Part shown: positions 1 through 56,639 of the stretch, one piece after another
Numbering within the stretch: position 1 is the first letter of the stretch
Layout: each line of letters opens with the position of its first letter
NCBI GenBank assembly: GCA_951812955.1
Contig: OX638340.1
Span: forward strand, 1,440,001-1,504,000
From: an uncultured Gemmatimonadota bacterium
Lineage (GTDB): Bacteria > JAAXHH01
Direction: 5' to 3'
DNA length: 64,000 nt
Notes under the pieces: generated by a model
The model's input: only the letters and a program-made list of their open reading frames with translations
Database searches by the model: none
What the model was told of the DNA's origin: nothing
Program-made: the position numbers and the translations under genes

Positions 1-1323
1 CGTCCTATCCTGATCGGGACGACCTCCGTCGACGCATCGGAGACGCTGAGCCGCATGCTGAAGCGGCGGGGGATAAAGCACAACGTGCTGAACGCCAAGT
101 TCCACCAGCAGGAGGCCGAGATCATCGCGAAGGCCGGGCAACCCGGCTCCGTGACCATCGCCACGAACATGGCGGGCCGGGGAACCGACATCAAGCTCGG
201 TACGGGTGTGGTGGATACCGGCGGGCTGCACATCGTCGGGACCGAACGCCATGAAGCCCGGCGAATCGACCGCCAGCTTCGCGGACGCTCCGGACGCCAG
301 GGTGACCCGGGGTCCTCGCGTTTCTACCTATCGCTGGAGGATGACCTGATGCGGCTCTTCGGCTCCGAGCGCATCGCCTCGGTCATGGACCGTCTGAAGA
401 TACCGGACGGGGAGGTGATCGAGCACTCCATGGTGACCCGGTCCATCGAACGGGCCCAGAAGCGTGTGGAGGCCCAGCACTTCGACATGCGTAAGCACGT
501 GCTCGAGTACGACAACGTCATGAACCAGCAGCGCGAAGCCGTGTACGATCGCCGGCTGCACGCCCTGGAGCGGAAAGACCTCAGGAACGACGTGATCGAA
601 ATGATCCGCGGGGTGGCGGAACGGAAGGTGGAAGAATACACCGATCCCAAGACGTATCCCGAGGACTGGGACCTGGACGGGTTGAGCGGCGACCTCGCCC
701 GGAACTTCCACGTCGCCGTGGCCGTGGCCGAAGAGGAAATGGCCGATCTGAACGTGGAATCGCTGGTGGAACTGGTCAACGAGAAGATGCTCGAATCCTA
801 CGAGCGGAAAGAAAAGGCGCTGGCGCCTTCGCCCGAGCTGATGCGCGACCTGGAGCGGTTCGCCACCCTGCACGTCATCGACAACGCCTGGCAGGAGCAC
901 CTGTACGAAATAGACCGGATGCGGGAGGGCATCGGCCTGCGCGCGTACGGCCAGCTCGATCCCCTGATCCAGTACAAGAAGGAAGCCTACGCCATGTTCG
1001 AGGAGTTGTGGGACCGGCTGGACGAGGAGATCGTCAAGACCGTCTTCAACGCCGAACTTGCCGAGTCCCGCATGCCGCGCCAGGAAACCCCGACCAACAT
1101 GCGGACGATCCACCAGGAAGCACCGGCCATGGCCGGCATGGCCGCGGAAGATCCCGATACGGGCGGCGCCGTCCAGCGGGGTGGAAGGCGCGACGCGGCT
1201 TCGGACGGGAGCTCATCCCGGTCGCGGCCCGTCAAGGCCGAACAGAAGATCGGCCGCAACGCACCCTGTCCATGTGGGAGCGGCAAGAAGTACAAGAAGT
1301 GCTGCGGGGCGGGCATCGCCTGA
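1..1323 (+). CDS. secA: Preprotein translocase SecA, C-terminal part (5' end outside window)
   Basis: In frame from base 1; SecA helical scaffold/wing motifs and C-terminal zinc finger CPCGSGKKYKKCCG; stop at 1321-1323. Confidence 0.95.
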   Translation, partial: RPILIGTTSVDASETLSRMLKRRGIKHNVLNAKFHQQEAEIIAKAGQPGSVTIATNMAGRGTDIKLGTGVVDTGGLHIVGTERHEARRIDRQLRGRSGRQGDPGSSRFYLSLEDDLMRLFGSERIASVMDRLKIPDGEVIEHSMVTRSIERAQKRVEAQHFDMRKHVLEYDNVMNQQREAVYDRRLHALERKDLRNDVIEMIRGVAERKVEEYTDPKTYPEDWDLDGLSGDLARNFHVAVAVAEEEMADLNVESLVELVNEKMLESYERKEKALAPSPELMRDLERFATLHVIDNAWQEHLYEIDRMREGIGLRAYGQLDPLIQYKKEAYAMFEELWDRLDEEIVKTVFNAELAESRMPRQETPTNMRTIHQEAPAMAGMAAEDPDTGGAVQRGGRRDAASDGSSSRSRPVKAEQKIGRNAPCPCGSGKKYKKCCGAGIA

Positions 1324-1331
1324 GGTGCTCT

Positions 1332-1416
1332 GACCAAAGCCGTCCGTAGCCCAGATCGCACCTGTCAGATCGCACCTGCCCGGCCATACCTGTCGGACCA
1401 AAGCCGTCCGTAGCCC
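1332..1416. repeat. Intergenic direct repeats: 21-bp gaccaaagccgtccgtagccc x2 (1332-1352, 1396-1416) flanking tandem cagatcgcacctg x2 (1352-1378)
   Basis: Read directly in the convergent secA / ABC-ATPase intergenic region. Confidence 0.8.
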
Positions 1417-1482
1417 CGACTGCCACATATCCCCTCAATCGCATCTGCCCGAACGCACCTGCCGGTTTACCGGGATGCCGGC

Positions 1483-2259
1483 CTATTCCTCCTCGGCGCC
1501 GATCTGGCCCAGATCCAGGTCCAATTCCTCGCGGCGCTGGTTCTTGGTGATCCTTCCGTCCTGTACCCACAGGATACGGTCCGAGACGTCCAGCATCTTC
1601 AGATCGTGGGTAGCGGAAATGATCGTGACCTGTTTTTCCTGGTTCAGTTCCCGTAACAATTCGATGATCTCCCGGCCCGTCTTGCGATCCAGGTTCCCCG
1701 TGGGCTCGTCCGCGAGGACGATGGCCGGATCGTTGGCCAGGGCGCGGGCCACGGCAACGCGCTGCTGCTGGCCGCCTGACAGTTCCAGCGGCTTGTGCTG
1801 GACCCGTTCTCCGAGGCCCACCAGCGACAGCAGGTCGACGCCCTTGTCGATCGCCTCGTCCGTCGCCAGGCCAGCGAAAATCATCGGCAGGGTGACGTTT
1901 TCGAGGGCGGTCATGACCGGAATCAGGTTAAAGGTCTGGAAGATGTAACCGATCTTGCGGCACCGCAGCCAGGCCAGTTCATAGGCGTCCAGCTGGGCGA
2001 CGTCGACCTCGTCGATATAGACCTTGCCCTCTGTGGGCTTGTCCAGTGCGCCGATCATGTTGAACAGAGTGGACTTACCCGAACCGGACGGACCCATGAT
2101 GGAGATGTACTCCCCGCGCTGCACCTCCATATCGATGCCTTTGAGCGCTTCCAGCGAAAGCTTGCCCATTTCATACACACGCTTTACGCCCCGCGTGCGT
2201 ACGATATTCTGTGTTGCGGTGTACTGCGCGTCCACTACCGCGGTCTGCTCTTCTGTCAT
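1483..2259 (-). CDS. ABC transporter ATP-binding protein (LolD/MacB-type)
   Basis: Walker A GPSGSGKST, signature LSGGQQQRVAVARAL, Walker B ILADEPT; ATG with AAAGGGG SD. Confidence 0.9.
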   Translation of the reverse strand: MTEEQTAVVDAQYTATQNIVRTRGVKRVYEMGKLSLEALKGIDMEVQRGEYISIMGPSGSGKSTLFNMIGALDKPTEGKVYIDEVDVAQLDAYELAWLRCRKIGYIFQTFNLIPVMTALENVTLPMIFAGLATDEAIDKGVDLLSLVGLGERVQHKPLELSGGQQQRVAVARALANDPAIVLADEPTGNLDRKTGREIIELLRELNQEKQVTIISATHDLKMLDVSDRILWVQDGRITKNQRREELDLDLGQIGAEEE

Positions 2260-2329
2260 TTCCCGCCCCTTTCAGGTTGCTTTCAAACTGCTTACGATCC
2301 TGCATGGTATTCCGGGTGTGTTCCGAGTG

Positions 2330-2992
2330 TCAGACCTCCGTGCGCATGGCGTCGGCCGGAGGCATCTGGGATGCCCGGTACGCGGGGTACAGCGCTCCGA
2401 TGATGGCGAGACCCAGCCCGGCCCCCAACGAATACAGGCCACTCCACGCCACATCCGCCACGGGAAAGAGCACCAGAGGGTCCCATCCGTAGGAGGTCAT
2501 CATCGAAATCAGCATGAAAAGGCAACCCAGTATGACCCCGCCCACCGATCCGACCAGTCCCTGGAAGGTGGACTCCAGCACGAACAGCTGAATGATGAAC
2601 TTGTCCAGGGCCCCAAGGCATTTCATGGTCCCGATCTCACGGTATCTTTCGGTCACCGACATCAGCATGGCGTTCGTGATGCCGACGACGCACACCAGCA
2701 GCGAGAGGGAAACGAGCCATACCTGCTGAGTCGCCGAATCGCCGTCCGCACCTTTCTGTTCCAGCAGTGCGCGGACCTGGGGGGAACCGCTATCCACCAG
2801 CGCTTCATTGATGGATGCTCCAGTCAGAATGGACATGAGAAAGGCGATGCCGAAAAAGATCCCACCGATCGTGATAAGCGACCGCCAGAACCTTATCTTC
2901 AGGCTGCGGAAACTGATCTCGATCGCCTTGGACAAGGGCAGTGATATTTGTTTCTCCGTCGTTCCGGCCGTCGCGGCCGATTCCGTCGTCAT
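2330..2992 (-). CDS. ABC transporter permease, minimal FtsX-like family (220 aa)
   Basis: N-terminal TM helix plus C-terminal FtsX-type 3-TM bundle; ATG overlaps upstream stop as ATGA. Confidence 0.8.
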   Translation of the reverse strand: MTTESAATAGTTEKQISLPLSKAIEISFRSLKIRFWRSLITIGGIFFGIAFLMSILTGASINEALVDSGSPQVRALLEQKGADGDSATQQVWLVSLSLLVCVVGITNAMLMSVTERYREIGTMKCLGALDKFIIQLFVLESTFQGLVGSVGGVILGCLFMLISMMTSYGWDPLVLFPVADVAWSGLYSLGAGLGLAIIGALYPAYRASQMPPADAMRTEV

Positions 2993-3453
2993 GCGTTTCT
3001 ATCTCCTTTTCTGTTTGCCACGGCCAGTCCGATCAAGCCCTTCTCCGTGAGTTGTTTCAGGTACGTCAGCGTGGAGACTTCCGCTTCCTTGCGTTCCAGT
3101 TTGTATTCGGTCCGGATTGTAGATATGACGTGGTCCACCGTATTCTGCCCATCGCAGAGCCCCCAGAGGAAGGACCCAATGCGGTCCAACACAACCGTTC
3201 GCCGGCTCGGTACGTAAAAAAACCGGGACATGCTGTTGATCCACCAGGTCTTTCTCCTCGGGATCCCCAGTACGATTTCCCCGTCGGAGTTTTCTTCGCA
3301 GGTCAGTCTTTCGTTGCGTACCGGCTTTGCGCGCAACAAATCCCTGCGGGGCAAAGGGGACTGTTTCTTACGAAAGAACTGCATGGTTATGACCCGTGGG
3401 AAAGATCCCGGCAATGAACTAGGGATGCGCACATCCCGTGATATCAATGGCAA
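2989..3453 (-). CDS. PqqD-family protein (RiPP recognition element-like)
   Basis: PqqD-like core DGEIVLG...NSMSRFFYV...LDRIGSFLWGLCDGQNTVDHVISTI...KQLTEKGLI; start codon uncertain (TTG 3453, GTG 3432 or ATG 3384). Confidence 0.7.
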   Translation of the reverse strand: MPLISRDVRIPSSLPGSFPRVITMQFFRKKQSPLPRRDLLRAKPVRNERLTCEENSDGEIVLGIPRRKTWWINSMSRFFYVPSRRTVVLDRIGSFLWGLCDGQNTVDHVISTIRTEYKLERKEAEVSTLTYLKQLTEKGLIGLAVANRKGDRNA

Positions 3454-4388
3454 ATCACCGTGCCAGCTATACCGTCCAGGTAATCGGGCCGGAGCTTCTC
3501 GTCCAGGTGCCGCAACACGAATATCTTATTGCCATCGATACAATGCCAGCTGCAACAACTCAATGGTTTTTTTCGGGACCGCCGCCACGGCAGCCAGGTC
3601 ATGCGAGTGTGCACCGTCTCGGGATCCACGCCTTCGCCCGTTCCCCGGATGGACGGATGGCCGTGATAGGATCCGGCTCCGTCAGTCCAGTGGTCGATCT
3701 CGTTTCCGTAAGTGGCCTGGAACCAATCCGGGAAGGTACGGTTCTCCAGATGCATTTCGGCGAGGCTCATCCTCACCAGTTCCAATCTGGCGCTACCGAG
3801 CTGGAAAGTCAACTCGATACGGCCCGTCAGAAAGGAATGCTGCACGAGTGCGTAGTCGGACGGGAGCTCTATGTGCAGCCCGTAAACCGCCCAGGTGGCG
3901 TTGTCGCCGCGCGCGTGGTCGTCCAGGGTATTCAGCAACCTCGAGGCCCGGGTCATCATGGATTCTCCCCCGCGCCCGAGGACCTGGGCGAAGACCGTGC
4001 GCCCGCAGGTTTCGCACATCCACAGGCAACCATAGGCCTGCAAGGGATCCGGCCCTTCCGTCCGCCAGTGGAACCCCTCCACCGTCCTGTCCGCCAGCGC
4101 GGACTCCGCCTTGATGAGCCCCAGGTCCCGCCGGACCTTCACGGGAGGCCCCTTCTTTCCGGCCTTTCCCGTGATGTTCTTAAGATATCTCGAGACAACC
4201 TGGTCGACGGGTTCCCGCCCCCGGGTGCGCTCCCACCTCAGTTCGAAACGCGGCATTTCCGTATCGTCGAGCCGCAGGTAACCCGATGAATGATCTCCCG
4301 TTACCGCGCCGATGCTCCAATCTTCCGGCCGCTCGAACGACAGGTGATGCCAGCCGGTGACCGCCCATTTCGATGCGACTCGATTCAT
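3444..4388 (-). CDS. Hypothetical Cys-rich protein (about 315 aa; CxxC and CCxxHC motifs)
   Basis: Long ORF in a packed operon; ATG at 4388 overlaps pgsA stop (ATGA); no family recognised; ORF-track start at 4655 would overlap pgsA and is rejected. Confidence 0.55.
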   Translation of the reverse strand: MNRVASKWAVTGWHHLSFERPEDWSIGAVTGDHSSGYLRLDDTEMPRFELRWERTRGREPVDQVVSRYLKNITGKAGKKGPPVKVRRDLGLIKAESALADRTVEGFHWRTEGPDPLQAYGCLWMCETCGRTVFAQVLGRGGESMMTRASRLLNTLDDHARGDNATWAVYGLHIELPSDYALVQHSFLTGRIELTFQLGSARLELVRMSLAEMHLENRTFPDWFQATYGNEIDHWTDGAGSYHGHPSIRGTGEGVDPETVHTRMTWLPWRRSRKKPLSCCSWHCIDGNKIFVLRHLDEKLRPDYLDGIAGTVICH

Positions 4389-4951
4389 GTGTACGAACGC
4401 TCCCGGATGAGCCGCGCGAAACCAAGGACGTAATGGATGCCCGACCCGGCGACGCAGCAGAGGGCTGCCCAGAGCGCCCACGCTCCGTAGGGCTGCCAGT
4501 CCACGGCATAAAGAATGAGGGCGCTGCCCATGGCCAGCGTGGTCAATTTGCCGATCCGGTCGGCCGGCAGGACCACGTTGCCCGGTCTGAAGTAAAGATA
4601 CGCGCCCGCGCCCAGAATGGACAGGTCGCGGGCGATGATCAACGCGGCCGCCCACAGTGGGAAGTCCCGATACAGCACCAGGAAGACCGACAGGCTACCG
4701 ACCAGGATCTTGTCGGCCAGCGGGTCGAGGACAAGCCCCCATTTGCTTTCCCAGCGGAAGCGGCGCGCCAGGAAACCATCGGCCGCGTCCGTCAGAAAGG
4801 CGCAGCCGATGAGCGCGTAGAGAGCCAACTGCGCATCCCCTGCGAAACCCCAGTAAATGAACGGAACAGCGGCTATGCGTGAGAGGGACAGGATGTTTGG
4901 CGGCGACCAGAACCCTCGCGCCCTTCCGCTCCGTCCGGTATTCGGGCTCAT
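4385..4951 (-). CDS. pgsA: CDP-diacylglycerol--glycerol-3-phosphate 3-phosphatidyltransferase (CDP-alcohol phosphatidyltransferase)
   Basis: Motif DAADGFLAR...GLVLDPLADK; multi-TM; ATG with AAGGA SD. Confidence 0.85.
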   Translation of the reverse strand: MSPNTGRSGRARGFWSPPNILSLSRIAAVPFIYWGFAGDAQLALYALIGCAFLTDAADGFLARRFRWESKWGLVLDPLADKILVGSLSVFLVLYRDFPLWAAALIIARDLSILGAGAYLYFRPGNVVLPADRIGKLTTLAMGSALILYAVDWQPYGAWALWAALCCVAGSGIHYVLGFARLIRERSYT

Positions 4952-4970
4952 GCCGCCGTCCTTCGCGAGC

Positions 4971-6680
4971 TCACACGGCCGCCGTGCGCCGAAGCATCTC
5001 GCGTGCGTGCGAGATGGCCATGGCGTCCACTGTCTCCCCGGCCAGCATGCGCGCGATCTCCCGGATCCTGCCGTCCTCGTCCAGATGATCGACCAGCGTG
5101 ACCGACCGGCCGCGAGCCGACTGCTTGTGCACGGTAAAATGCGTACGGCCCCAGCAGGCCACCTGGTGGAGATGGGTGATGCAAAGCACCTGGTGGTCCC
5201 GGGACAGCAGCTTTAACCGGTGCCCGACCGATTCGGCGATGCGTCCACCGATGCCGATGTCCAACTCGTCGAATACCAGCGTCGGCATTCGGTCCGATTC
5301 GGCCAGAATCACCTTGAGCGCCAGCATGATGCGCGAGATCTCCCCGCCGGACGCGATGTTCGCCAACGGTTTCAGGTCCTCGCCGGAATTGGGCGATATC
5401 AGGAATTCGATCCGATCTATCCCGTGGGCGTCGACGCTGTAGCCGCGCCCGTCGATCCGCAAGGGACCTTCTTCGGCTTCCCGCCATTCGATACCGACAC
5501 GGAATCCCGTCTTCTCCATGCCCAGTTCCGCCAGTTCCGCAATCACCCTTTTCTCCAGCCTGCTCGCCACCTGTTTACGCCGGTCCGACAGGGTTTTCGC
5601 CCGTTCGGCCAGTTCTTCGCGGGCCGCTTCCACCTCCGAGCGCAAACTGCTTCGATGCTCGCCGGCCGTGTCCATCTGTTCCAGTTCTCCGGCGATACGG
5701 CCACGGTAGGCCAGGACTTCCTCGATCGTGGCGCCGTACTTGCGTTTGAGCCGACCGAGAAGGTCAAGGCGGTCCAATACCTCTTCCAGGCGCGCCGGGT
5801 TGTAGTCCACGCGGTCGCGGTAGCGCCGAAGGAAGTCGGCACAGTCGTCTAGATGGTAGCGCGCGCTCCGAATACCCTCGAGGGCCTCGCCGAGTGCGGG
5901 GTCTATGCGCTCCGCTTCCTCCAGCGAACGGATGACCCGGACCAATCCGTCGACCAGGGCGCCTTCCCCTTCAGAGAGCGCCTCGGAAGCGTCGGATGCG
6001 ATCTGGACCAACTGTTCAGCGTGCTCGAGGACGGACCGCTCCCTTTCGAGTTCTTCGTCTTCTCCCGGGGACAATTCAGCCTGGTCGAGCTCTTCCAGCT
6101 GAAAGCGGTAGAGATCTTCCCTTTCCCGGGTGGCGGCGAGACTGTCTTCCATCCGCCGCAGGGCTTCCGACCGCTCGGTGAAAAGGTGGTAGGCCTCGGC
6201 GACCCGTTGCTTCGGCGCTCGGACGTCCTCGTAACCGTCCAGAAAGTCCCGGTGCGTCCGCGGATTCAGCAGCGACTGGTGATCGTGCTGTCCGTGCAGA
6301 TCCACCAGCAGGACGCCCAGTTTCCTGAGAACGGAAACGGTGACCAGGCTGCCGTTTATCGTGCACCGGTTGCGGCCGTCGCGGGCCACCTCCCGTCGGA
6401 TGATCAGCATGCCTTCTTCCGGGTCCACGCCGATTTCCACCAGCAGGGCCTGCAACTGCGCGTCGTGCTCCCCTTCGAACAGCCCCTCGACGATGGCGGT
6501 CCGTGTGCCGCCGCGTATGGACTCGGACGCGGCCCTGTCGCCCAGAATGAGGCCCAGCGCGCCGATCAGGATGGACTTGCCGGATCCGGTTTCACCCGTG
6601 AGCACGTTCAGTCCGGAGGTGAACTCGATGTCCACCTCGTCCAGCAGCGCGTAGTTTCTGACCCTCAAGTTCGCGAGCAT
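4971..6680 (-). CDS. recN: DNA repair protein RecN
   Basis: N-term MLANLRVRNYALLDEVDIEF...GETGSGKS, coiled coil, C-terminal SMC-like signature; ATG 6680 preferred over TTG 6689. Confidence 0.92.
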   Translation of the reverse strand: MLANLRVRNYALLDEVDIEFTSGLNVLTGETGSGKSILIGALGLILGDRAASESIRGGTRTAIVEGLFEGEHDAQLQALLVEIGVDPEEGMLIIRREVARDGRNRCTINGSLVTVSVLRKLGVLLVDLHGQHDHQSLLNPRTHRDFLDGYEDVRAPKQRVAEAYHLFTERSEALRRMEDSLAATREREDLYRFQLEELDQAELSPGEDEELERERSVLEHAEQLVQIASDASEALSEGEGALVDGLVRVIRSLEEAERIDPALGEALEGIRSARYHLDDCADFLRRYRDRVDYNPARLEEVLDRLDLLGRLKRKYGATIEEVLAYRGRIAGELEQMDTAGEHRSSLRSEVEAAREELAERAKTLSDRRKQVASRLEKRVIAELAELGMEKTGFRVGIEWREAEEGPLRIDGRGYSVDAHGIDRIEFLISPNSGEDLKPLANIASGGEISRIMLALKVILAESDRMPTLVFDELDIGIGGRIAESVGHRLKLLSRDHQVLCITHLHQVACWGRTHFTVHKQSARGRSVTLVDHLDEDGRIREIARMLAGETVDAMAISHAREMLRRTAAV

Positions 6681-6810
6681 AGGCTGCAAAATGAACGGCG
6701 AGACCGGGTGGGACCGAACGGGCCGGATGGACCGTGCAGAACCGGACGGGACCAGGCGCGGCCGGGTGCCGCCGGACGCGGCCGGGAAGGCCCGCTGATT
6801 CCCGGGGTCT

Positions 6811-7698
6811 TCAGCGTTCTCCCCATTTCAGTTTCGTACGCAGGACGTCGTAAAAGGACCGATCCGAAAAACGGATCAGGTGTATGGTGTGGTCCGCCCG
6901 GTAAAGCTCGACGGTGCTGCCCGGCTGGATGACCACGTTTTCCTGGCCGTCCACGGTGAGCAGGAGATCAGGATGATCGGCCGTGACTTCGATCCGTACG
7001 CGGTCCCGCGCCGCGAGCACCATGGCCCGGTTGGACAGGGTGTGCGGACAGATGGGCGATACGACGATCGCTTCCATACCGGGCGCCAGAATCGGCCCGC
7101 CCGCCGCCAGCGAATAGGCCGTGGACCCGGTCGGCGTCGATACGATGAGCCCGTCCGCCATGACGTCGTTGACGTATTCGTCGTTGACGTAGATGCCCAG
7201 TTCGATGACCCGGCATATTGATCCCTTGTCGATCACGATATCGTTCAATGCCGAAAACACGCCGGCCGCCGCCGCGTCCCCCGGGGTTCCGTTACCGATC
7301 CGACCTTGCAGGACCAGCCGCTTGTCCAGCGAGTATTGCCCGTCGAATACCTGTTCGATGGCTTCGTCCAGTTCGCCGGGCGTCGTCTGCATCATGAAAC
7401 CGAGCTTACCGGAATTGACGCCGAGAATGGGCGTTCCGGAAGCGCCGACCAGACGGGCGGTCTTGAGCAGCGTACCGTCCCCGCCTATGGCGATGACCCA
7501 GTCGACGTCCTTCACGGCGAGTTCGTCCGAATCGACGATCACGCACGCCCGGCGGCCGGTCTCATCTCTGACCATGGCCGCAAGGCCGGCCGCGAGCGAT
7601 GGTTTTCCGGACCGTGACGAGAGCAGCCGCACAAGCTCGGGGATCAGGTGGCTGACCACGGGGCGGGCCGGATTGGCGATGATGCCCACGCGATGCAT
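6811..7698 (-). CDS. nadK: NAD(+) kinase
   Basis: GGDGTLL motif, NAD kinase fold; ATG overlaps ispA-like stop (TGATG). Confidence 0.9.
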   Translation of the reverse strand: MHRVGIIANPARPVVSHLIPELVRLLSSRSGKPSLAAGLAAMVRDETGRRACVIVDSDELAVKDVDWVIAIGGDGTLLKTARLVGASGTPILGVNSGKLGFMMQTTPGELDEAIEQVFDGQYSLDKRLVLQGRIGNGTPGDAAAAGVFSALNDIVIDKGSICRVIELGIYVNDEYVNDVMADGLIVSTPTGSTAYSLAAGGPILAPGMEAIVVSPICPHTLSNRAMVLAARDRVRIEVTADHPDLLLTVDGQENVVIQPGSTVELYRADHTIHLIRFSDRSFYDVLRTKLKWGER

Positions 7699-8849
7699 CA
7701 GAAGGACCTTCCGATCAGGAATTCTGCCCAGTTGACCAGGTATTCCTTGTAAGTGGAACCGGGAACGTCATCGAGATTCCGAATGGCGTCGGCCACCCGT
7801 CGCTCCATGAGCGACCGGGCGTGTTCGAGGCCGCCATGGGCCAGGATGAGGTCGCGCACCTCCGCGATCTGCTCTTCGGTCGCCCCCGGTTTTCCAACCA
7901 CGTCGAGCAGGAACCGCCTTTCGGCGGCCGAAGCCTTGTGGTACGTATGGACGAGCAGCAGGGTTCGTTTCCCTTCCCTCAAGTCGGAGCACACCGGTTT
8001 GCCCAGGGTGGCCTCGTCGGCCGTGAGACCCAGGATGTCGTCCTGCAGCTGGAAGGCCACGCCGCATTCGCCGGTGAAGGATGAAATCGCCCGAACCATG
8101 GGATGGGTCCGGTCCGGCGTATTCAGGCCGATCATCGCGCCGGCGGCACCCGCGAACGCGTAGAGCGCGCCGGTCTTGCGCCAGAACATATCGATAACGG
8201 ACGCTTCGTCCAGGCTGTCCATGGGCGCCTTGGCATACTGAATATCCAGCGCCTGCCCACCCACGAGGGCCAGGAGCACATCCGTTTCCAGGTAACGGAT
8301 CAGTTCGATTACCATCGCTCCATTGTCCGCGTCCGCATCGTACAGTTCGGACAGGAGAGCGGTGGCCCACCCGTGCTGCACCTCGCCTGTCATGATCCCG
8401 ATGCAAATGCCGTAGTGGGCGGCTTCCCTCTCGTCGAAAGCCTCCGTGGCCAGCGCGCGTCTTCGGAACGCTTCGTGGACGGTGGGCGTGCCGCGCCGCA
8501 ACGTGTCCCGGTCCATGATGTCGTCATGGACGATGGTCCAGGTGTGGAAAAGTTCCACGGCGACCGCAGCGGGCGTTGCGGCATGCTCCTCGCCGCCTAC
8601 AGCGCCGCAGGAGAAATACAGCACGCAGGGACGGAGGACTTTGCCGGATGCTCTCAGGTAGCTGAACACCCCGTCATGGATATCCGCCGGTACGAAGAGT
8701 GCTTTCCGGCGGTCCCGTTCCAGGTATTCTCGCACCCATTCCTTACGCACGGCCAGCGCTTCGAGGAAGCCCTGCTTCCCCGGGGTCTCGGTCATATGTA
8801 ACACCAGGCTGTGACGGTTCGTCGGCAATTCTCGCGGTGTTGCCGGCAT
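7698..8849 (-). CDS. ispA: Polyprenyl diphosphate synthase (FPP/GGPP synthase family)
   Basis: Second Asp-rich motif FQLQDDILG and first DDxxD region; N-terminus probably shorter (internal ATG 8798). Confidence 0.85.
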   Translation of the reverse strand: MPATPRELPTNRHSLVLHMTETPGKQGFLEALAVRKEWVREYLERDRRKALFVPADIHDGVFSYLRASGKVLRPCVLYFSCGAVGGEEHAATPAAVAVELFHTWTIVHDDIMDRDTLRRGTPTVHEAFRRRALATEAFDEREAAHYGICIGIMTGEVQHGWATALLSELYDADADNGAMVIELIRYLETDVLLALVGGQALDIQYAKAPMDSLDEASVIDMFWRKTGALYAFAGAAGAMIGLNTPDRTHPMVRAISSFTGECGVAFQLQDDILGLTADEATLGKPVCSDLREGKRTLLLVHTYHKASAAERRFLLDVVGKPGATEEQIAEVRDLILAHGGLEHARSLMERRVADAIRNLDDVPGSTYKEYLVNWAEFLIGRSF

Positions 8850-8923
8850 GTGGACCGCGGAGGTACGGTCCCTCGCGAGCGGGACACCCGAACCGGCGGT
8901 AACGCTCCAAGGGACGTCGGAAT

Positions 8924-9190
8924 CTAAAACGACAGATCGTCACCCTGGCTGGCCGGCGGTTCCGGCTCGAGGGGTTCGATGACGAACCGGCCGTTCTCCA
9001 CCCGGACCAGCTTGCGCACGTGCTCGTCCGCCGCATTCAGCTGGCGAGTGCAGATCCGGGAAAGTTCGATGCCCTCCTGGAAAAGAGCGAGTGATTCATC
9101 CAGCGGAAGATCGCCCTGTTCCATGCGTTCAACGATTTGCTCGAGGCGCTTAAGCGCTTCCTCGAAAGTCGGTTTTTCGTGCTCGTTCAT
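8924..9190 (-). CDS. xseB: Exodeoxyribonuclease VII small subunit
   Basis: 88-aa helical protein FEEALKRLEQIVERMEQGDLPLDESL; directly downstream of xseA. Confidence 0.9.
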   Translation of the reverse strand: MNEHEKPTFEEALKRLEQIVERMEQGDLPLDESLALFQEGIELSRICTRQLNAADEHVRKLVRVENGRFVIEPLEPEPPASQGDDLSF

Positions 9191-9207
9191 TTTAGGTATC
9201 CAAACGG

Positions 9208-10515
9208 TCAGACGGGTTCCTGGTTATCCGGGTCATCGAACAGTCCGAAAGTTGCGGGGGCTTCCTTGCGCCGATTCCCGCGGGCCGCCGCTGCTTGTTC
9301 CGCCCCGCCGCGAAGGTGCTCGACGCGGCAGAATGCCTCGCCCTTGCGCAGCCGCACTTTCACCCGGTCGTCGACGTTGAGTTCATCCGCGCCGCGGACG
9401 ATGCGACCGTCGGACGCTCGCTGGCAGACCGCGTATCCGCGTTCCAGCACCGAGAGGGGACTGAGGGCCTGCAGCCGGCCGGCCAGTCCGCCGACCCGCT
9501 GGACGCGGGTTTCGTGGACGTGGAAGCACCGTTCGGCCAGGCGGCGGGTCAATTCATCGGTGTACTGGGCGTACTGACCGACCTGGTCGACGGGCCGCCT
9601 GAGTCCGTAACTGGAGACTGCCGTGGCGATGCGCTGGCGATACCGGTCGATGTACCCCGTCATGCCCCCGCAGAGACGCCGTAATACGGCATCCGACCGG
9701 TCCTTCAGTTCCCGCATGTCGCGAACGACGATTTCGGCCGCGCCCGAAGGGGTGGGGGCCCGGTGGTCGGCCGCGAAGTCGGCCAGGGTATAGTCCGTTT
9801 CGTGTCCAACCGCGGAAACCACAGGGATTCGGGACCCGAAGACCGCGCGGACCACCGCCTCTTCATTGAATGCCCACAGGTCCTCCACCGACCCGCCTCC
9901 GCGGCCGACGATCAACACGTCCACTTCGCCGTAGTCGTTCATCTCTTCGATGGCGGCCGCGATTTCCGCCGCGGCGCCGTCACCCTGTACGGGCGTCGGA
10001 CGGAGGATGATCGAAACCCACGGCGCGCGTCGGCGCAGGACCTGTATGATGTCCCGGATCGCGGCGCCGGATCCGGAAGTGACTACACCCACGCGCTCCG
10101 GGAAGGACGGCAGCGCTTTTTTGTGTTCCTCCCGGAAAAGGCCCTCTTGCTCGAGCCGGGCCTTTAATCGTTCGAAGGCCGCCTGCAGCGCGCCCGCGCC
10201 GACGGGCTTCAGTTCCCGGGCAATCAGTTGGTATTGCCCCTGCACCTCGTAGACCGAGAGGACGCCCCGGGCCAGGACCTCCATGCCGTCTTCGGGCTCG
10301 AAGGTCAGCCTGCGGTTGGCCGTCCGCCACATGACGCAACGCAACTGGCTGCGTTCGTCCTTCAGCGAGAAGTAGGCATGGCCGGACGAGTGCCGCTTGT
10401 AGTTGGAGATTTCACCGGACACCGACACCAGGGGGAACGCCTCTTCGAGCAGCGTCTTGATCCCGGAGGTCAGTTCGGAAACGGTAAGGATACTGCGATC
10501 GCCGTCAGTCCCCAA
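9208..10515 (-). CDS. xseA: Exodeoxyribonuclease VII large subunit
   Basis: OB-fold N-terminus LTVSELTSGIKTLLE plus catalytic core; TTG start with GGGAGG SD. Confidence 0.9.
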   Translation of the reverse strand: MGTDGDRSILTVSELTSGIKTLLEEAFPLVSVSGEISNYKRHSSGHAYFSLKDERSQLRCVMWRTANRRLTFEPEDGMEVLARGVLSVYEVQGQYQLIARELKPVGAGALQAAFERLKARLEQEGLFREEHKKALPSFPERVGVVTSGSGAAIRDIIQVLRRRAPWVSIILRPTPVQGDGAAAEIAAAIEEMNDYGEVDVLIVGRGGGSVEDLWAFNEEAVVRAVFGSRIPVVSAVGHETDYTLADFAADHRAPTPSGAAEIVVRDMRELKDRSDAVLRRLCGGMTGYIDRYRQRIATAVSSYGLRRPVDQVGQYAQYTDELTRRLAERCFHVHETRVQRVGGLAGRLQALSPLSVLERGYAVCQRASDGRIVRGADELNVDDRVKVRLRKGEAFCRVEHLRGGAEQAAAARGNRRKEAPATFGLFDDPDNQEPV

Positions 10516-25492: not shown

Positions 25493-25550
25493 TTCGGTGA
25501 AATTCGAGGCACTGTCCTCGAATGGTTCGCGCAGTATCAGCGGGAGTAGC

Positions 25551-25622
25551 TCAGCGGTAGAGCATCACCTTGCCAAGGTGAGGGTCGCGGGTTCAAGCCC
25601 CGTCTCCCGCCCTCGGACGTGG
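25551..25622 (+). tRNA. tRNA-Gly (anticodon GCC)
   Basis: Cloverleaf folded by hand: acceptor GCGGGAG/CTCCCGC, anticodon loop TTGCCAA, T-loop TTCAAGC. Confidence 0.9.
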
Positions 25623-25630
25623 CGGCATAG

Positions 25631-25702
25631 CCAAGTGGCTAAGGCACGGGACTGCAAATCCTCGATCGCCGGTTCGAATCCGGCTGCCGCCTTGCTTTTT
25701 CT
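25631..25702 (+). tRNA. tRNA-Cys (anticodon GCA)
   Basis: Acceptor GGCGGCA/TGCCGCC, 3-bp D-stem, anticodon loop CTGCAAA, discriminator U. Confidence 0.9.
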
Positions 25703-56384: not shown

Positions 56385-56456
56385 TAGCGGTACGGGGAAT
56401 CGAACCCCGGTTTGATGGCTGAGAACCACCCGTCCTAACCACTAGACGATACCGCC
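56385..56456 (-). tRNA. tRNA-Glu (anticodon CTC)
   Basis: Folded by hand: acceptor GGCGGTA/TACCGCT, anticodon loop TTCTCAG, T-loop TTCGATT. Confidence 0.8.
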
Positions 56457-56568
56457 GCGTTGCTCTTGACGAAAATACCCCATTTACCGGCCATAGTCAA
56501 GTATCCGGGCCGGCTTTTATATCGCTTCGAAGACGTAAAATCCTCTACGGGCATGGCAAGAATGTGAA

Positions 56569-56639
56569 CTGGGGGGCAGGGATTCGAACCCCGATTCCAT
56601 GGTCCAGAGCCATGTGTCCTACCCTTGAACGACCCCCCA
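56569..56639 (-). tRNA. tRNA-Gln (anticodon CTG)
   Basis: U1-A72 acceptor TGGGGGG/CCCCCCA, anticodon stem CATGG/CCATG, loop CTCTGGA, discriminator G; matches the bacterial tRNA-Gln architecture. Confidence 0.88.

Follow-up and report, generated by a model that had tools for sequence, protein, structure and literature searches.

X, a tandem Mog1/PsbP-like protein of a large unnamed family, and its genomic linkage to an RRE-fold protein and an FtsX/MacB-type ABC pair

In a stretch of 64,000 nucleotides from an uncultured Gemmatimonadota bacterium (GTDB JAAXHH01; assembly GCA_951812955.1, contig OX638340.1, positions 1,440,001 to 1,504,000 of the forward strand), hereafter called the window, a gene that we designate X encodes a soluble protein of 314 residues. 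X is tightly linked in genomes to the gene for a small PqqD-like protein with the fold of a RiPP recognition element (RRE; RiPP, peptide that is ribosomally synthesized and then post-translationally modified) and to a permease and ATPase pair of the FtsX/MacB type of ATP-binding cassette (ABC) transporter. Judging from the sequences, X would act, with a probability of about 0.5, as a cytoplasmic adaptor or scaffold that works together with the RRE protein in an uncharacterised FtsX/ABC module. The family to which X belongs has no name although its fold is known, and the ABC-associated cassette in which it resides is undescribed.

Results

Conservation of the gene cassette

The neighbourhood of X relatives was compared at 79 loci from species-level genomes, 71 of which could be assessed for the ATPase. 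The PqqD gene directly follows X in 67 of the 79 loci, and a MacB-type ABC ATPase is encoded within 3 kb in 57 of the 71. The hosts are Latescibacterota (including metagenome-assembled genomes, MAGs, from sponges and corals that are labelled Gemmatimonadetes), Poribacteria, Armatimonadota (among them Chthonomonas calidirosea), Planctomycetota (Brocadiaceae), Hebobacteria, and others. The adjacency of X and PqqD persists at 21–46% sequence identity, in at least five phyla and between differing flanking genes, and at one locus (L086) the gene order is altered to ABC-X-PqqD. The cassette likewise persists despite changes in the permease, which comprises 220 residues in its shorter form, about 468 residues in Brocadiaceae, or 930–1,520 residues where it is encoded upstream, and which is missing downstream in Poribacteria. 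The permease thus varies in its extracytoplasmic part, whereas X and the RRE protein do not change, which suggests a role for X on the cytoplasmic side.

The original prediction, made from the letters of the window alone, had seen a coupling of X to the pgsA-like gene upstream. The overlap between these two genes is real; what had been missed is the four-gene cassette that X forms with the PqqD/RRE protein, the FtsX permease, and the ABC ATPase. Of the 20 Latescibacterota-type loci that could be assessed, 19 have a pgsA gene upstream of X, as does none of the loci from other phyla, and a functional link between X and pgsA, being confined to one lineage, was rejected and treated as synteny.

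Close relatives of the window, in which X is 96–82% identical, come from sponge and coral MAGs that are variously labelled Gemmatimonadetes, Candidatus Latescibacterota, or simply 'bacterium'; public records thus do not agree on the taxonomy of this lineage.

Family, fold, and internal duplication of X

As predicted from the letters alone, X has no recognisable family at the level of sequence: no family model in Pfam, NCBIfam, or PADLOC matches it, and none of the PDB sequences matched when these were searched with the X family profile. An assignment to DUF1450 was rejected, as the weak match (E 0.02; 15 bits, with the cut-off at 30) spans the CxxC hairpin only. A word-indexed search returned 26 clusters, and an exhaustive profile search returned 1,564 representatives, each standing for a cluster at 50% identity, at E ≤ 1e-3, with 820 at E ≤ 1e-10 and 230 at E ≤ 1e-30. 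Zero family matches were found when 49 diverse relatives (21–46% identity) were scanned against Pfam, and likewise against NCBIfam; ten longer members, scanned for fusions, showed no additional Pfam domain. Where sources name members at all, the name is always 'hypothetical protein'. By these searches, X belongs to a large unnamed family.

At the level of structure, the claim that no family could be recognised has to be amended, since the predicted fold is that of a tandem Mog1/PsbP-like protein. In the confidently predicted model, helices sandwich an antiparallel β-sheet that can be superimposed on PsbP and Mog1. The structural matches each span approximately one domain, and Foldseek agrees on these single-domain matches while the two-domain arrangement is left unmatched. 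When the N-terminal and C-terminal halves of the family profile were compared with hhalign, they aligned over 141 columns with a probability of 96.8% and an E-value of 2.9e-10; X therefore arose by an ancient duplication, within the protein, of a Mog1/PsbP-type domain. In this repeat alignment C125 stands opposite C283, and D157-H158 stands opposite C313-H314. The first domain holds the surface motif that is best conserved across the family, G36-Y-L-R-L-D-D-x-E-x-P-R-x-E-x-R-W52.

The highest Kyte–Doolittle mean over any 19 residues of X is 0.79, and the protein has no hydrophobic segment, transmembrane (TM) helix, or signal peptide, so it should be cytoplasmic. Its fold relatives among the structural matches are binders and not enzymes: Mog1 binds Ran, PsbP binds photosystem II, and others are type VI secretion system (T6SS) immunity proteins. 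Eag chaperones, which have the same fold, hold the TM helices of effectors (PMC12881460).

Two sets of putative metal ligands

X contains seven Cys residues, of which C125, C128, C283, and C313 are conserved and C121, C278, and C279 are not. Both motifs quoted in the original prediction are present, CLWMCETCGR as residues 121–130 and CCSWHC as residues 278–283. The suggestion that they bind metal is backed by conservation for C125, C128, and C283 and not for C121, C278, and C279; furthermore, the ligands proposed were an incomplete set, as D157/H158, H244, and C313-H314 also appear to be included, and the residues divide over two putative sites rather than one. Among the 49 diverse relatives, C125 is kept in 47, C128 in 44, H158 in 43, H244 in 41, C283 and C313 in 47 each, and H314 in all 49. 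In a larger sample of 166 relatives each putative ligand is kept in 83–94%, and the full C-C-H-H-C-C-H pattern is found in 122 of 170 aligned family sequences. The exceptions fall into two classes: in the first, C125 and C128 are lost, mostly together with H158, while C283, C313, and H314 are retained; in the second the reverse is seen, the C283/C313/H314 side being lost and the C125/C128 side retained.

Fisher tests on the 166 sequences, the p-values of which are to be read qualitatively since kin sequences are treated as independent, show that C125 and C128 are lost jointly with H158 (p from 1e-11 to 2.5e-14) and that H244 is lost jointly with C283, C313, and H314 (p from 7e-8 to 4e-11). Associations reach p = 2.5e-14 within positions 125, 128, 157, and 158 and p = 8e-15 within positions 244, 283, 313, and 314; of the 16 pairs between the two groups, 15 have p > 0.05, and nominal significance is reached by D157 with C283 alone (p = 0.02). 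This pattern points to two independent ligand sets, A (C125, C128, D157, and H158) and B (H244, C283, C313, and H314), each with four conserved, co-varying Cys/His/Asp residues, as expected of a structural zinc site. There would probably be one metal site per domain, the metal most likely being zinc, and each site would tie the hairpin after a long β-strand to the segment behind the last helix of its domain.

Three members illustrate what happens when a set is missing: P0127, which is without site A, and P0141 and P0176, which are without site B, all keep P21, W24, W52, and W166, which make up the invariant core of the family, and the PqqD gene still follows X. Because members lacking one site retain both their core and their gene partners, the predicted metal sites look structural rather than catalytic.

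Two other arrangements were rejected. A single four-Cys site (C125, C128, C283, and C313) stapling both domains together is contradicted by the loss of these ligands in two independent groups and also by the equivalent ligand positions in the two repeat halves. A classical zinc ribbon or zinc finger does not fit either, as X has only one CxxC (125–128), partnered by D157/H158.

X as a translated gene

The gene measures 945 nt, corresponding to 314 codons and a TGA stop; the 315 residues given previously are one too many. The longest open reading frame (ORF) starts at GTG 4655 and does overlap the upstream gene, as had been pointed out, although by 271 nt and not 270. The preferred start at ATG 4388, which shares an ATGA with the stop codon of the pgsA-like gene, is borne out by the lengths of homologues: among close homologues (45–100% identity), 18 of 24 clusters are exactly 314 residues long and the others 299–315 residues. 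The 4-nt overlap between X and the gene upstream recurs at orthologous loci, and the 945-nt length is maintained among orthologue pairs from 46% to 96% identity. Seven orthologue pairs show purifying selection on the frame, with differences at third codon positions exceeding those at first positions 1.4- to 2.6-fold; in two example pairs, the differences at first, second, and third positions number 30/24/75 and 48/36/124. On these sequence comparisons, X is a real, translated gene starting at ATG 4388, because homologue lengths are conserved, the overlap recurs, and substitutions are biased toward third positions. A scan of window positions 1200–7000 for promoters and terminators gave nothing above chance expectation.

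Partner genes in the window

The coordinates of X, its domains and putative ligands, and its neighbours are collected in Table 1. The partner directly downstream has a genuine RRE fold and is most similar to TbiB1/TfuB1. Its homologues are 131–133 residues long, which makes ATG 3384 its likely start rather than TTG 3453, where the longest ORF begins; the latter would overlap the end of X by 10 nt, whereas the former leaves a gap of 59 nt. The Zn(Cys)4 site of PerR occurs among the weaker fold matches of this protein and is incidental.

The start codon of the permease overlaps the PqqD stop codon (ATGA), and orthologous loci are arranged alike; the start/stop overlaps suggest co-translation. 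The permease has four hydrophobic helices, with about 35 residues between TM1 and TM2, and is without a periplasmic domain. The motifs of the ATPase are intact (GPSGSGKST for Walker A, LSGGQQQR for the signature, and LADEPTG for Walker B). The two genes match a MacB/type VII system in their FtsX four-helix permease and intact MacB/LolD-type ATPase, but not in the large periplasmic domain between TM1 and TM2. Both fall below the curated NCBIfam cut-offs for LolD, LolCE, FtsE, FtsX, MacB, and DarD: FtsE scores 200.5 against 264.85, LolD 234.2 against 307.75, lolCE 46.8 against 362, and the FtsX models 29–35 against 225–255. At 220 residues the permease is unusually small, and the domain by which MacB/LolC/FtsX function is defined, the periplasmic one, is absent from it.

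Upstream of X, the score of the phosphatidyltransferase for pgsA is 79 bits, below the NCBIfam cut-off of 109 bits, and we therefore call this gene pgsA-like. A housekeeping array of co-directional genes on the reverse strand (window 4971–10515: xseA, xseB, polyprenyl synthase, NAD kinase, recN, and the pgsA-like gene), which is conserved in L001 and L004, has X at its end; secA (55–1323, forward strand) converges on the cassette. The window also contains two pairs of adjacent tRNAs (Rfam RF00005), at 25540–25692 on the forward strand and at 56385–56639 on the reverse strand.

Table 1. Positions in the window of X, its predicted domains and putative metal ligands, and its neighbouring genes
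Feature	Coordinates	Strand	Details
Gene X (314 aa, soluble protein, unnamed family)	3444..4388	(-)	ATG 4388, TGA 3446-3444
Domain 1, Mog1/PsbP-like α/β, residues 8-158	3915..4367	(-)	
Domain 2, Mog1/PsbP-like, residues 163-314	3447..3902	(-)	predicted ancient duplicate of domain 1
Putative site A, part 1, C125-E-T-C128	4005..4016	(-)	CxxC in β-hairpin turn; conservation, joint loss with H158
Putative site A, part 2, D157-H158	3915..3920	(-)	right after last helix of domain 1
Putative site B ligand H244	3657..3659	(-)	kept 41/49
Putative site B ligand C283	3540..3542	(-)	last Cys of CCSWHC, β-strand end; equivalent of C125
Putative site B ligands C313-H314	3447..3452	(-)	final two residues of X
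PqqD/RRE-fold protein, 131 aa	2989..3384	(-)	ATG 3384
FtsX/MacB-type permease, 220 aa	2330..2992	(-)	Pfam FtsX E 1.3e-21
MacB/LolD/FtsE-type ABC ATPase, 258 aa	1483..2259	(-)	
CDP-alcohol phosphatidyltransferase, pgsA-like, upstream of X	4385..4951	(-)	PF01066 E 1.3e-30

Neighbouring genes in other phyla

Outside Latescibacterota, a giant protein of 930–1,520 residues that combines MacB_PCD and FtsX domains is encoded upstream of X (L002 815–5386, L065 2–2800, and about 30 other loci), the MacB_PCD match being weak (E 4.8e-4). In L002 this protein has a signal sequence at its N-terminus and, in the periplasm, an M28 peptidase domain. At the C-terminus of the giant proteins lies a conserved cytoplasmic domain of about 150 residues that is unrelated to X; homology between the two was rejected at an hhalign probability of ≤1.4%. 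Between the giant FtsX gene and X lies a conserved gene for a polytopic membrane protein of 665–686 residues (L002 5448–7445; L065 2852–4912), for which no Pfam, NCBIfam, or PDB sequence match was found, even at E 10. Neither the giant FtsX protein nor this membrane protein was found by tblastn in the 64-kb window.

In Poribacteria, a small ORF of about 55 residues with two predicted TM helices (MEKLAYGLIFIGAVLWGFSILFMEGRWQPQILAAVILAVGILVAHIWEE...) is located between the genes for the giant FtsX protein and the 665-residue membrane protein (L033 3646–3813, L035 1662–1829, L051 3016–3186, and 21 other loci). In the Chthonomonas calidirosea MAG, a protein of 419 residues is encoded directly after the ABC ATPase (L065 8841–10100); it gives a weak match to PtsI/PEP-utilising enzymes (TIGR01417, E 4e-13), far below the cut-off.

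Discussion

Proposed role of X and its alternatives

We propose that X, the small peptide-binding PqqD/RRE protein, the FtsX/MacB-type permease, and the ATPase would form one module, in which X would serve as a metal-stabilised, non-enzymatic binding platform, that is, an adaptor or chaperone. The RRE protein would bind an extended peptide by β-strand addition; on the cytoplasmic side, X and the RRE protein together would recognise a putative ligand, either a peptide or a protein, and would link it to the ATP-driven FtsX/ABC machine or regulate that machine. A binding platform is favoured because the fold relatives bind and do not catalyse, and because the putative metal sites are dispensable in some lineages.

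Several observations weigh against this proposal, in addition to the kinship of the sequences in the Fisher tests noted above. In 10 of 15 Armatimonadota loci, X is found without PqqD or ABC neighbours (L036, L037, L040, L042, L047, L049, L053, L055, L058, and L062). These lone relatives, next to which lie genes for TPR proteins (L036 and L042), a Na+/H+ exchanger (L047 and L055), or FtsW/RodA (L053), may be paralogues with another role. The metal could instead be iron or an iron–sulphur cluster, site B offering two Cys and two His. Finally, a discrete RRE beside a transporter counts as a strong sign of a RiPP cluster and is normally read as one (PMC7470986), which would favour an enzymatic X.

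This last point leads to the main rival, a RiPP-like pathway, which we consider unlikely: X would be a new metal-dependent peptide-modifying or leader-processing enzyme to which the RRE protein presents a precursor, with the FtsX/ABC pair exporting the product or conferring immunity. That X is specifically a catalytic enzyme on a Mog1/PsbP scaffold, serving a new RRE-dependent peptide-maturation pathway with MacB-type ABC export, appears about as unlikely. Site A, which has only three strongly conserved ligands (Cys2His), does resemble catalytic zinc sites that activate thiols, a make-up seen for example in LanC cyclases. The RRE (PqqD-like) domain is present, but a precursor gene and a known modifying enzyme are both missing from the picture: there is no conserved precursor-like small ORF in or beside the cassette, the intergenic gaps of which measure 59–160 nt in the window. 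When 888 small ORFs around X were clustered over all loci, no precursor candidate emerged in the Latescibacterota-type cassette, and the only conserved small ORFs near X were xseB and the two-helix peptide of Poribacteria; a precursor may lie elsewhere. No known RiPP enzyme class is encoded nearby, the window cassette and related loci being free of radical SAM, YcaO, LanB/C, lasso cyclase, and B2 protease genes, and no known enzymes are found on the Mog1/PsbP scaffold among the structural matches of X. Moreover, in the loci retrieved the cassette sits amid housekeeping genes, and either site A or site B is lost in some members that keep their PqqD neighbour.

Less likely than this is a redox or metal sensor, in which zinc, or an iron–sulphur cluster, would be bound reversibly and its oxidation or loss would alter the hold of X on the ATPase or permease, thus switching the transporter. 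Two Cys-containing putative sites in a cytoplasmic protein closely linked to an ABC ATPase, with the CxxC in an exposed hairpin turn, would suit such a mechanism, and zinc–thiolate redox switches are well known, as in Hsp33 and RsrA. The lineages that retain the cassette without one of the sites, however, fit a structural role better than a regulatory one, and regulator or stress genes are not conserved near X.

It is more improbable still that X is an unrelated neighbour, a stand-alone protein such as a chaperone or a PsbP/Tsi3/Tli4-type binder akin to immunity proteins, whose adjacency to PqqD and ABC genes is mere synteny. The ten Armatimonadota loci that carry X without the cassette would be accounted for, and the pgsA linkage of Latescibacterota demonstrates that synteny with unrelated housekeeping genes does arise within single lineages. 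The adjacency to PqqD, in contrast, holds across the identity range, phyla, flanks, and gene orders described above, and the immunity proteins known to have this fold reside in the periplasm, while X has no signal peptide. That X is a chance ORF in GC-rich DNA, of which the window (61% GC, and 76% at third codon positions) contains many long spurious examples, is already refuted by its 1,564 homologous cluster representatives, its conserved length and excess of third-position substitutions, and its confidently predicted fold.

Significance

The X family comprises more than 1,500 clusters at 50% identity, yet it is unnamed, is covered by neither Pfam nor NCBIfam, and has no literature. The module that it forms with the RRE protein, the FtsX permease, and the ABC ATPase is conserved in poorly studied phyla, many of the hosts being bacteria of hot springs or symbionts of sponges and corals. 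Provided that a MacB-type transporter indeed has X and the RRE protein as cytoplasmic partners, this would be the first use of an RRE outside classical RiPP biosynthesis, and mechanotransmission ABC systems would gain an accessory subunit of a new type. Should X be an enzyme instead, a new RiPP-like class would emerge, extending over Latescibacterota, Poribacteria, Armatimonadota, and Planctomycetota. Either way, the family definition, the two putative metal sites, and the clear set of partners are available for experiments.

Comparison with known systems

X shares its fold with the Mog1/PsbP/DcrB (DUF1795-like) superfamily, which includes PsbP/CyanoP, Mog1, DcrB, LpqN, and Apa, although neither X nor its 49 diverse relatives match the sequence models for PsbP, Mog1, DUF1795, DcrB, or LpqN. 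Most bacterial members are secreted proteins or lipoproteins, whereas X is predicted to be cytoplasmic; it further differs in being a tandem duplicate, in having two Cys/His ligand sets that are not described for the superfamily, and in its gene neighbourhood of RRE and FtsX/ABC genes. In comparison with PsbP proper, X lacks lumenal or periplasmic targeting and occurs in Latescibacterota, Poribacteria, Armatimonadota, and Planctomycetota rather than in oxygenic phototrophs. The Eag (DUF1795) chaperones of the T6SS, such as SciW and EagT6/PA0094, have no Cys/His sites, in contrast to the two sets in X, which for its part has no DUF1795 sequence match; T6SS, PAAR, VgrG, and Rhs genes are found near X in none of the 79 loci. 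Of the tandem PsbP-like proteins TplEi/Tli4 (5h7y and 7wdk) and BT_1490 (3hlz), a single domain aligns to X, with a query TM-score of ≤0.37, and these are periplasmic immunity proteins or proteins with no assigned function that, unlike X, are not linked to RRE or ABC genes.

The B1/B2/C/D systems for lasso peptides resemble the X cassette in combining a discrete, TbiB1/TfuB1-like RRE with a second protein and an ABC exporter. X is, however, not a transglutaminase-type protease, its cassette has neither a lasso cyclase nor a precursor peptide, and the exporter is of the FtsX/MacB type, whereas that of lasso peptides is a McjD-type half-transporter. A search of the literature for PqqD together with FtsX or MacB found nothing relevant, and no described member of the type VII (MacB/LolCDE/FtsEX) ABC systems has a PsbP-like or RRE-like cytoplasmic partner. 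With these systems the neighbours of X nevertheless share both the FtsX-domain permease and the LolD/MacB/FtsE-like ATPase, and the giant MacB_PCD and FtsX protein of other phyla, which sometimes has an M28 peptidase domain, recalls the control that FtsEX-type systems exert over extracytoplasmic hydrolases.

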